Positions 1,757 through 3,715 of a DNA stretch of 7,674 nucleotides are shown here, piece by piece. The stretch is from a virus. Lineage: Duplodnaviria; Heunggongvirae; Uroviricota; Caudoviricetes. A program made the position numbers and the translations under genes. Each line of letters opens with the position of its first letter. Within the stretch, counting starts at the first letter, position 1. The notes under the pieces were generated by a model that ran no database searches, was not told the DNA's origin, and was given only the letters and a program-made list of their open reading frames with translations. The stretch lies in IMG/VR virus record IMGVR_UViG_2703719355_000017; one strand, written 5' to 3'.

Positions 1757-1805
1757 GGTTTAGTTTTTACTTGACTTAAGTTTAATGTTTATTAAACTAA
1801 AAATA
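1757..1805 (+). promoter_or_regulatory. Second operator/promoter copy (OL/PL-like) downstream of the toxin gene
   Basis: GGTTTAGTTTTT (1757-1768) parallels GGTTTAGTGTTTTT at 735-748. -35 TTGACT (1771-1776), 16-nt spacer, -10 TAAACT (1793-1798). GTTTAATGTTTATTAAAC (1780-1797) matches GTTTAGTGTTTAATAAAC (755-772) at 16 of 18 positions. Confidence 0.45.
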
Positions 1806-2651: not shown

Positions 2652-3026
2652 ATGGAATTTAAAGATTTACCAATGCAATTCCAGGAAATGGCAGCGAATA
2701 TAGTTCGTTCCCAACTGGCGACTCTTGACCTGAGTACCGTAGAAAAAGAAACCATCGATACTATATCCAGTAACGTGCGTCGTGCCTTTATCGGTCTGTA
2801 CGAAGAGAAGCAGCTCTCTGATAACCAGGATTTACATGAAAAATACTTCCTGGATCTAATGGACATCATTAATAAGGGATTTGGCTTGTTAATGAAACAG
2901 AAAGGGATTCGAATGAACCCCCTTGAAAATTACTTCGCAACAAGAAGCATTAATTCCTGTGATTTAAAGCATCCCGCCACAGACGGGAGTGTTACAGCTA
3001 GCCATGAGATTTCGATTAATCATTAA
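2652..3026 (+). CDS. Hypothetical protein, 124 aa
   Basis: SD GAGG (2642-2645) 6 nt before ATG 2652. Starts 22 nt after the previous gene, suggesting an operon. Lower GC than flanking genes by eye. No family recognised. Confidence 0.7.
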   Translation: MEFKDLPMQFQEMAANIVRSQLATLDLSTVEKETIDTISSNVRRAFIGLYEEKQLSDNQDLHEKYFLDLMDIINKGFGLLMKQKGIRMNPLENYFATRSINSCDLKHPATDGSVTASHEISINH

Positions 3027-3114
3027 AATCAATAGCTATTTCAATAAGTGATGCCATCTCGTTGCGTTTTGTTGAATTCATCTTACGTAATACTTCATGT
3101 TGATTAGCACCTTT

Positions 3115-3155
3115 GGCGGCATCAGTTTAATTGCTGGCTGATGTCCGCCCTTTTT
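3115..3155 (+). terminator. Putative rho-independent terminator
   Basis: GC-rich stem GGCGGCATCAG (3115-3125) pairs with CTGATGTCCGCC (3138-3149) with one bulge; 12-nt loop; followed by TTTTT (3151-3155). Lies about 90 nt after the 124-aa gene. Confidence 0.5.
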
Positions 3156-3159
3156 AAAG

Positions 3160-3178
3160 TGAATTTTGTGATGCGGTG
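3160..3178. repeat. Left arm of a 19-bp perfect inverted repeat
   Basis: TGAATTTTGTGATGCGGTG (3160-3178) is the exact reverse complement of 3303-3321. Arms are separated by 124 bp. Confidence 0.9.
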
Positions 3179-3302
3179 AATGCGGCTCAGCGCACGCGGA
3201 ACAGTTAAAAAGGCCAGTTGACTTCCGTATTGGTTCTTATGGGTGGGTTCTCTGTATCCGGCGTTAATTGTTAACTGGTTAACGTCACCTGGAGGCACCA
3301 GG

Positions 3303-3321
3303 CACCGCATCACAAAATTCA
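3303..3321. repeat. Right arm of a 19-bp perfect inverted repeat
   Basis: CACCGCATCACAAAATTCA (3303-3321), reverse complement of 3160-3178. Confidence 0.9.
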
Positions 3322-3338
3322 TTGTTGAGGACGCGATA

Positions 3339-3527
3339 ATGGAAACGTTATTACCAAACGTTAATACGTCTGAAGGTTGCTTTGAAATTGGTGTCAAAAT
3401 CAGTAACCCTGTATTTACTGAAGATGCCATTAATAAGAGAAAACACGAACGGGAGCTATTAAATCAAATATGCATTGTTTCAATGCTGGCCCGTTTACGT
3501 CTGATGCAAAAAGGATACTGGCAATGA
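3339..3527 (+). CDS. Hypothetical small protein, 62 aa
   Basis: ATG 3339 with GAGGA (3327-3331) 7 nt upstream. The longer track ORF from 3243 would start inside the inverted-repeat region and is rejected. Stop TGA 3525-3527 overlaps the next start. Confidence 0.55.
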   Translation: METLLPNVNTSEGCFEIGVKISNPVFTEDAINKRKHERELLNQICIVSMLARLRLMQKGYWQ

Positions 3528-3715
3528 ATACATCATTTGCACTCGTTCTGACGGTTTTTCTTAATACGGGCGAGCCGCTTGACCTTATTGTTGACATACG
3601 TGACTCAATGGAAGAATGCATGGCTGCCGCAGCGGAACAGAAAATTCCCGGTAACTGTTATCCGGTTGATAAAGTTATTCGCATGGATAATAACGAAGTC
3701 CCGGCAGGGCTTTAA
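3524..3715 (+). CDS. Hypothetical small protein, 63 aa, with a short N-terminal hydrophobic segment
   Basis: ATG 3524 overlaps the preceding stop (ATGA), suggesting translational coupling. Product MNTSFALVLTVFLNTGEPLDL... The track ORF start at 3470 is upstream of the coupled ATG. Confidence 0.55.
   Translation: MNTSFALVLTVFLNTGEPLDLIVDIRDSMEECMAAAAEQKIPGNCYPVDKVIRMDNNEVPAGL

Follow-up and report, generated by a model that had tools for sequence, protein, structure and literature searches.

What does a perfect 19-bp inverted repeat do between a transcription terminator and the start of the next gene? The question is raised by a 7,674-nucleotide stretch of Caudoviricetes DNA (IMG/VR virus record IMGVR_UViG_2703719355_000017; "the window" hereafter means this whole stretch), where such a repeat lies in the spacer between a DicF-like small RNA (sRNA) and dicB. 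The original prediction, made from the sequence alone, had left four options side by side, with no preference among them: an RNA element with a long stem, for example a site of RNase III processing, a pair of operators, a miniature inverted-repeat insertion, or a recombination or inversion site. Our analysis favours the first: the repeat is probably the closing helix, P1, of an STnc100-like RNA, whose extended stalk would be cut by RNase III between the DicF-like sRNA and dicB.

The inverted repeat and its predicted RNA

On recomputation, TGAATTTTGTGATGCGGTG occupies positions 3160-3178 and its exact reverse complement positions 3303-3321, with 124 nt between them, just as first described. No other perfect inverted repeat of at least 13 nt occurs in the window. 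In 300 first-order Markov shuffles, allowing spacers of up to ~300 nt, the longest perfect inverted repeat never exceeded 14 nt, and the analytic expectation for one of at least 19 nt is 8e-6. The repeat is genuine and far beyond chance, as had been suspected. In RNA, its helix is lengthened by the pairs G3159.U3322 and A3158-U3323 to 21 contiguous pairs. The upstream terminator and the downstream Shine-Dalgarno (SD) sequence and ATG lie where the original prediction placed them (Table 1); what it missed is their identity, the terminator being that of the DicF-like sRNA and the gene being dicB.

In the folding model, the arms are the two strands of P1, which closes a multi-hairpin RNA of ~160 nt on the plus strand. 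RNA folding, one of the checks proposed at the outset, returned a stable closing helix: the predicted fold of 3150-3335 has an energy of -72.5 kcal/mol (z=-4.99), and P1 was retained in all folding contexts, DicF and dicB sequence included. Alignment with copies from other contexts reveals two near-invariant blocks, TGCGGTGAATGCGGCTnAGCGCACGCGGAACAGTTAAAA (window 3172-3210) and CCGGCGTTAATTGTTAACTGGTTAACGTCACCTGGAGGCACCAGGCACCGCA (window 3258-3309), and an interior that is better conserved than the arms; the inside of the middle domain (~3211-3257) varies among homologues in both length and sequence. The description of the spacer as 124 bp of non-coding DNA was right as far as coding is concerned, but it overlooked the best-conserved part of the locus, the STnc100-like multi-hairpin core. 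Two open reading frames (ORFs) do cross the spacer mechanically, one on the minus strand (3122..3430) and one on the plus strand from a GTG (3243..3527, in frame with dicB). A coding role is ruled out for both because homologues differ by indels that would break the reading frame, such as the 14 nt that separate the window from K-12 and are no multiple of three, and because the conserved blocks covary as RNA pairs.

Covariation was scored on a 24-sequence alignment of divergent homologues from the long-stem branch described below, using a structure made of the P1 core, the P1 extension, H1, the base of the middle domain, H4 and hairpin E. In the P1 core, 93.0% of the cells are paired and 12 of the 19 pairs have changed on both sides. 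Pairing over the whole structure amounts to 90.7% and drops to 35-42% once partners are slid by 1-3 columns, and its covariation score was reached by none of 500 shuffles, the 24 sequences being related to one another. Stems of 17-22 bp with a different sequence are found in Citrobacter (GCAGGCUUUAAGGUGCGGUG / CACUGCACCUUAAAGUCUGU), Scandinavium, Klebsiella-phage and viral copies. Four pairs of H4 show double changes, for instance in the Klebsiella phage copy, and in hairpin E, the signature held in common with canonical STnc100, a U-A pair has become G-C in 9 of the 24 sequences. The alignment also discriminates between strands, with 152 G.U cells against 31 A.C cells and 90.7% pairing on the plus strand against 80.5% on the opposite one. 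Because G.U is favoured over A.C, including at the two G.U pairs of the K-12 arms, the comparison points to a helix selected as RNA on the plus strand, in the sense of dicB.

The Rfam STnc100 model (RF02076) can be aligned from one end to the other with 3148-3371 (34.0 bits, E=1.4e-4), and its outer helix is the inverted repeat, but the score misses the gathering cut-off of 47 bits. At this threshold, canonical STnc100 copies score 57-138 bits, and the leaders of dicB (K-12 Qin), kilR (Rac), tciA (P7) and a Klebsiella-phage gene all go uncalled. The window element shows the STnc100 architecture, namely a P1 starting GGUG/AAU, internal hairpins and a CCNGG-AGGCA-CCNGG hairpin abutting the CACC strand. 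The 3' hairpin of the model (positions ~165-206) is forced onto the dicB SD and start region in the alignment, and a terminator scan found no terminator-like site after P1. Since the architecture and two sequence blocks are common to both while the curated score was failed, the element is best described as a divergent, unannotated STnc100-like branch, and we do not call it a member. The Rfam search at E<=1 returned no families besides DicF and STnc100. STnc100 itself is a multi-copy, transcribed, prophage-associated RNA related to PasD and without established function; its canonical copies are abundant RNAs in enterohaemorrhagic E. coli (EHEC), and one was detected by Northern blot.

A survey of 146 motif-defined elements, with P1 positions counted from the junction, separates the family helix from its extension. 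Positions 1-8 are paired in 71-100% of the elements, with covariation (position 5: U-A 80, C-G 46; position 6: G-C 95, A-U 38; position 7: U-A 76, C-G 28), whereas from position 9 outward pairing is at the background level of 35-63%. Family-wide, P1 thus measures ~8 bp and the extra ~12 bp are specific to a branch. Uninterrupted runs of 21-22 pairs occur in 25 unique elements, which comprise the dicB type with the Citrobacter and Scandinavium copies; the kilR-type stem has 10 pairs, a 1-nt bulge and ~9 further pairs, and the P7 and D6 copies have the canonical 9-bp P1 alone.

Within the long-stem branch, the element ends 27-66 nt ahead of an SD and start codon, and at least seven unrelated proteins occupy the downstream slot. 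Long-stemmed or not, the same element stands directly upstream of kilR in Rac-type and Shiga-toxin (Stx) phages and in K-12 Rac and directly upstream of terB/tciA in P7 and D6; in Citrobacter, Scandinavium, Pseudescherichia, a Klebsiella phage and viral contigs, small ORFs of other kinds follow it at once. Region 3100-3400 has homologues in 4642 of 5426 complete E. coli genomes, at a median of 2 places per genome and up to 9, with dicB as the annotated neighbour; the K-12 Qin copy is 87.8% identical across the 180-nt element. The helix is shown by this comparison, as are its covariation, strand and placement, and so is the fact that it is homologous with the copies in K-12 Qin and Rac.

Canonical STnc100 copies also form tandem arrays of up to five beside phage tRNA genes (L139 2265-3380; L152 342-1253, with a motif period of 253 nt; L172 1702-2340; L186 7405-8488), and the P7 and D6 copies come after tRNA-Asn and tRNA-Thr.

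RNase III and the extended stalk

In K-12, DicF has two 3' ends: Rho-independent termination yields a 53-nt RNA, and the full-length dicBF mRNA, when processed by RNase III, gives rise to a 72-nt DicF (Faubladier 1990, as relayed in PMC5069750 and PMC9438474). In MG1655, dicF spans 1649382-1649434 and the left arm 1649444-1649462, so that the relayed length of 72 nt, counted from the dicF start, ends at 1649453, nucleotide 10 of the 19-nt left arm. Transferred by alignment, the cut would fall between 3169 and 3170, and the core would keep a P1 of 9 bp, the length that is canonical for the family. The cut, as the later papers relay it, thereby coincides with the boundary between the canonical P1 (~8 bp over the 146 elements) and its extension.

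The usual cleavage geometry of RNase III leaves a 2-nt 3' overhang, from which a partner cut on the 3' strand is predicted (Table 1). With 21 contiguous pairs, the helix reaches the length of an RNase III substrate (about two helical turns, 20-22 bp or more), and the 12 of 19 compensatory pairs together with the 152:31 ratio of G.U to A.C indicate a duplex selected on the transcribed strand.

Further K-12 data come from Gordon 2017, whose Table S1 contains a site named 'dicF-dicB' at 1649470, flagged as known: both wild-type replicates have 0 reads there and the rnc deletion mutant has 26; the position is 8 nt inside the element. The zero wild-type coverage is more consistent with RNase III starting the decay of the leader and of the downstream RNA. 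Ragunathan 2023 reports that a read-through ydfABC-dicFB-ydfD transcript of 1608 nt exists and that ydfA transcript bands are undetected in an rnc deletion mutant. From this K-12 literature come both the 3' end that depends on RNase III, as later papers relay it, and the loss of reads, which is likewise RNase III-dependent. With covariation and G.U asymmetry beside them, they support the original long-stem option.

The K-12 upstream RNase III site (L002 ~1238-1323) folds as a separate local hairpin of ~25 bp, and in the model K-12 DicF is bracketed by two independent RNase III stems. That the arms compete with this upstream site is ruled out by the latter's own local hairpin. In the window, the region upstream of the DicF-like RNA is unrelated to that of K-12 and has no significant structure (z=-0.7).

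We propose the following sequence of events. The element would be transcribed on the plus strand in an early-left operon of the dicBF type, between the DicF-like terminator and dicB. Extension of P1 from ~8 to ~21 bp, here and in sister copies leading kilR or other small genes, would be enough for the host RNase III. On read-through past the DicF terminator, RNase III would cut the stalk ~9 bp from the junction, giving a longer, 72-nt-type DicF 3' end and parting the sRNA from the dicB message. With a second cut, on the other strand, the leader of the dicB mRNA would become short and begin with a 5'-monophosphate, and the STnc100-like core would be freed with a P1 of canonical length. The direction of effect that we favour, for the repressed state, is an uncoupling and a quicker decay of the toxic dicB message, to which a partial, dicB-specific unmasking of the SD may be secondary.

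Several points weigh against this proposal. The 72-nt DicF datum is second-hand, through later papers, and the RNase III ends are those of the K-12 homologue rather than of the present sequence. The dicF-dicB site of Gordon 2017 is low in reads and coarse in resolution, the method relying on ratio peaks with sites at least 400 bp apart. The same table gives a 'kilR-sieB' site at 1418510 (41 reads against 0), which lies ~110 nt upstream of the Rac stem and not inside it; because of this offset, solely the Qin entry is counted as support. Ragunathan 2023 discusses the upstream RNase III site alone, as the 5' end of a 190-nt DicF. On our own side, homologues were gathered by an exact motif and the structure derives from the fold of the window itself; both flatter the counts, and the latter gives the structure an advantage in the slid control. 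The SD of the kilR copy is open in the precursor (modelled probability of being unpaired 0.77-0.99), so occlusion is not general. Finally, the absence of wild-type reads from the core (0) speaks against K-12 having a stable excised core in the conditions of Gordon 2017.

Alternative readings

The last point bears on a stronger version of the proposal, which we regard as doubtful: RNase III would excise the core as a third, so far unrecognised product of the dicF-dicB, kilS-kilR, tciA and similar operons, a functional RNA with an 8-9 bp P1, and the stalk would be its maturation signal, as in rRNA. If true, the core might be a trans-acting or protein-binding RNA, or a sensor gating a toxin gene, and many enterobacterial temperate phages would carry a portable leader ahead of small toxic host-takeover genes.

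A stem that represses translation in cis without cleavage, holding the dicB ribosome-binding site in a duplex with the U-run of the DicF terminator and allowing dicB translation only once opened, is unlikely in our judgement, although the folding model offers it some support. In the minimum-free-energy structure of 3150-3335, the terminator U-run UUUUUAA is paired with the UUGAGGA of the dicB SD, and the partition-function model gives the SD a probability of being unpaired of 0.15-0.16 in the window precursor (0.15 in K-12 Qin) against 0.72 (0.77) when the left half is absent, with 0.51 (0.31) after a cut at ~3314. A natural variant without the left half still has dicB: in E. coli ET120 (L003 1440-1592), a recombination junction inside the element has swapped the left arm, H1 and the middle domain for unrelated DNA and retained H4, hairpin E, the right arm and dicB, a natural 'left-arm deletion' allele. 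Yet the outer extension is weak, being G.U-rich and 68.5% paired across homologues, centroid structures leave the SD free, as does the kilR copy in its precursor, and a perfect core of 21 bp is far longer than the occlusion of an SD outside it needs. As for the dicB start codon, it sits inside a small local hairpin (AUAAUGG...CGUUAU, 3335-3352), with a modelled probability of being unpaired of 0.00-0.05 in every construct, before or after the putative cut. Because the extension is weak, the SD free in centroids and open in the kilR copy, and the AUG always in a hairpin, SD unmasking would be at most a secondary, dicB-specific effect of cleavage.

We consider it quite improbable that the element is a stand-alone sRNA of the STnc100 type, the stem being merely its closing helix and RNase III cleavage an incidental turnover of duplex RNA. 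The end-to-end alignment of the STnc100 model (34 bits, E=1.4e-4) speaks for this, as do the GGUGAAU block and AGGCA hairpin in common with canonical copies and the abundance of the latter in EHEC. Nonetheless, the Rfam cut-off is reached neither by the window element nor by the K-12 Qin and Rac copies. A scan of both strands over 2900-3600 found nothing promoter-like, and where a terminator of its own would be expected the next feature is the dicB SD. Moreover, the long stems are specific to intra-operon copies 27-66 nt before a start codon, and wild-type K-12 has 0 reads in the core. An RNase III signal within a longer transcript remains our preferred reading of the stem.

We give hardly any credence to the repeat acting as DNA, whether as an invertible switch, as the ends of a miniature inverted-repeat transposable element (MITE) or as an operator pair, even if its arms are perfect over 19 bp, an integrase gene lies 3.2 kb downstream and genomes hold several copies. 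A query with the 124-bp interior reverse-complemented reached at least 80% coverage in 0 of 4642 genomes (maximum 61%, from the flanks alone), against 4005-4403 genomes for the native order. A scan for sigma-70-like promoters in 2900-3600 found none on either strand, and together these results lead us to reject a switch of the fimS/hin type and the inversion site once suggested. The proposed search for copies and an empty site recovered the E. coli homologues counted above, and every top match of the empty-site query was split in two, the element standing between the pieces. No target-site duplication is seen in its flanks, AAAG and TTGT, the copies keep a constant operon position, and the interior is conserved above the arms. 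The arms themselves covary, with G.U tolerated in one strand sense, which argues against a MITE, since a transposase site would be conserved in sequence. The operator option fails in its turn: the left arm is identical in the window, SE11 and Rac-SA53 despite repressor/Cro-like proteins that are unrelated or nearly so, neither arm has a second copy within the window, and the window's operator-like repeat is another sequence (762-785 / 1774-1797). A tRNA-like or riboswitch core, conceivable from the last hairpin stacked on P1 and from copies near tRNAs and ahead of genes, was unsupported by any result.

Genomic setting and comparison with known systems

The window is the early region of a lambdoid prophage of the Qin/Kim type, and the repeat falls within its dicF-dicB spacer. 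YdaT and YdaS/Cro-like genes on the minus strand are followed by a cI-like gene and a PaaA2-ParE pair. Then come a pL-like promoter candidate, two small ORFs, the DicF-like RNA, the element, dicB and a DUF1482 gene, and beyond the latter the exonuclease, excisionase and integrase genes.

Table 1. Coordinates of the RNA element and of neighbouring features in the window
Feature	Position	Strand	Remarks
pL/dicBp-like promoter candidate	1771..1798	+	TTGACT-16-TAAACT; from consensus scan, repeat, gene order and orientation
DicF-like small RNA	3104..3155	+	Rfam DicF match 3104-3150, 35.1 bits (cut-off 48), E=7.8e-5
DicF-like intrinsic terminator	hairpin 3118-3145, U-run 3151-3155	+	Terminator scan
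P1 5' strand	3158..3178	+	Inner 8-9 nt (~3170-3178) family-wide; 3158-3169 branch-specific extension
Putative RNase III cut, 5' strand	3169..3170	+	By alignment with the 3' end of the K-12 72-nt DicF, as relayed in later papers
Hairpin H1	3182..3197	+	GCGGC...GC.CGC; 99% paired, near-invariant in long-stem branch, no informative variation
Variable middle domain	3198..3259	+	GGA/UCC base pairs (helix 4) 97% paired; 2 of 3 pairs double-changed
Hairpin H4	3260..3286	+	10-bp stem, loop GUUAACU; 92.5% paired
Hairpin E	3288..3302	+	CCUGG-AGGCA-CCAGG; abuts P1 3' strand; 100% paired
P1 3' strand	3303..3323	+	Right arm 3303-3321 plus nucleotides of the two outer pairs
Predicted partner cut	3313..3314	+	From RNase III geometry at 3169/3170; would leave a dicB leader of ~25 nt
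dicB Shine-Dalgarno	3327..3331	+	GAGGA; in the model pairs weakly with DicF terminator U-run, as outer P1 extension
dicB	3339..3527	+	62 aa, cell-division inhibitor; Pfam PF05358, E=1.3e-38; RefSeq homologues annotated dicB

By analogy with K-12 dicBp, the promoter candidate is the likely source of the transcript that bears the element. A 24-nt operator-like inverted repeat (762-785 / 1774-1797) is 79% complementary, its perfect core of 12 nt being TTAAGTCAAGTA; both copies overlap promoter-like sites of the form TTGACT-N16/18-TAAACT, which are on opposite strands, and the whole looks like an OR/OL-type operator-promoter pair around the repressor and toxin-antitoxin block. The toxin-antitoxin pair, at 1161-1686, consists of an antitoxin of the PaaA2 type (PF21217, E=1.7e-19) and a ParE toxin (PF05016, E=4e-16); within the immunity region, it has the cI-like gene on one side and the pL-like promoter on the other. 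Just past this promoter, antisense to the operon, the minus strand holds a 114-aa ORF (1980-2324) with paired CxxC motifs (CPECGG...CKNCGH). The DicF-like RNA scores 35.1 bits, against 76.7 for K-12 DicF; its terminator half is kept and its 5' half has diverged, and its target range may differ from that of K-12 DicF.

The element is a homologue of the known dicF-dicB spacer element of K-12 and not a new kind, and reports that RNase III acts at this position go back, as later papers relay, to 1990. What we did not find in the literature examined is a description of this spacer as an STnc100-like domain, of its reuse as a leader for several unrelated small genes, or of the coincidence between the reported cut and the boundary of canonical P1 and extension; these three points are our modest additions. 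DicF and DicB are toxic and regulate cell division, metabolism and phage resistance; work on how their outputs are balanced is still under way. The RNase III-made 72-nt DicF is now tied to a specific, evolutionarily maintained helix, and the leaders of kilR, tciA and other small phage genes are linked to the widespread, function-less STnc100/PasD family. This provides a handle both on how prophages uncouple an sRNA from a toxin mRNA and on the role of STnc100-type RNAs. For annotation, the Rfam threshold misses the leader branch in most E. coli genomes.

The K-12 Qin (Kim) dicF-dicB spacer is the direct homologue, with the same order of DicF terminator, stem, core, stem, SD and dicB, and the same distances from the arms to the terminator and to the ATG. 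It differs in its arms (GAUGUGGUG/CACUGCAUC), whose two G.U pairs are Watson-Crick in the window, in a variable middle domain that is 14 nt longer in the window, in the diverged 5' half of the window's DicF-like RNA (35 vs 76.7 bits) and in the upstream genes.

The Rac kilS-kilR leader of K-12, in common with the Kil leaders found in phages of the Stx and Rac types, has an identical left arm and the same core, with a DicF-like terminator immediately upstream, and its element ends ~20 nt before the SD and ATG of another FtsZ-directed division inhibitor. Its stem carries a 1-nt bulge after 10 bp and a G.U pair, its SD is unoccluded in the model, and KilR is unrelated to DicB. In K-12 Rac (L010, NC_000913.3 1418000-1419000, minus strand), the sRNA KilS (b4833) ends at a DicF-like terminator, followed by stem, core, stem and kilR, so that the dicF-element-dicB layout is duplicated as kilS-element-kilR. 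A literature search on RNase III, kilR and Rac found no report.

With STnc100 (RF02076), the window element has in common a P1-closed multi-hairpin domain starting ...GGUG-AAU and ending CCNGG-AGGCA-CCNGG then CACC, and a prophage location. It differs in its score (34 vs 47), in H1 and H4 sequences that are unlike those of the family, in a P1 of 21 instead of ~8 bp and in apparently having no terminator hairpin of its own. Furthermore, it is a gene leader inside the early-left operon, whereas canonical copies are late-region arrays by tRNA genes.

Beyond this family, the RNase III sites R1.1-R5 of T7 and that of the lambda N leader are simple hairpins of ~50-60 nt with internal loops. They resemble the present case as host RNase III substrates within a phage polycistronic RNA, between two products, but here the duplex closes a conserved multi-hairpin domain of 124 nt. 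The processing stalks of rRNA are also duplexes built from the flanks of a structured RNA; rRNA yields a stable excised product, whereas for the element excision is a prediction. By analogy, the element would work as do the RNase III signals that lie between the cistrons of phage early transcripts and, because its duplex is formed by the flanks of a structured RNA, would resemble an rRNA stalk.

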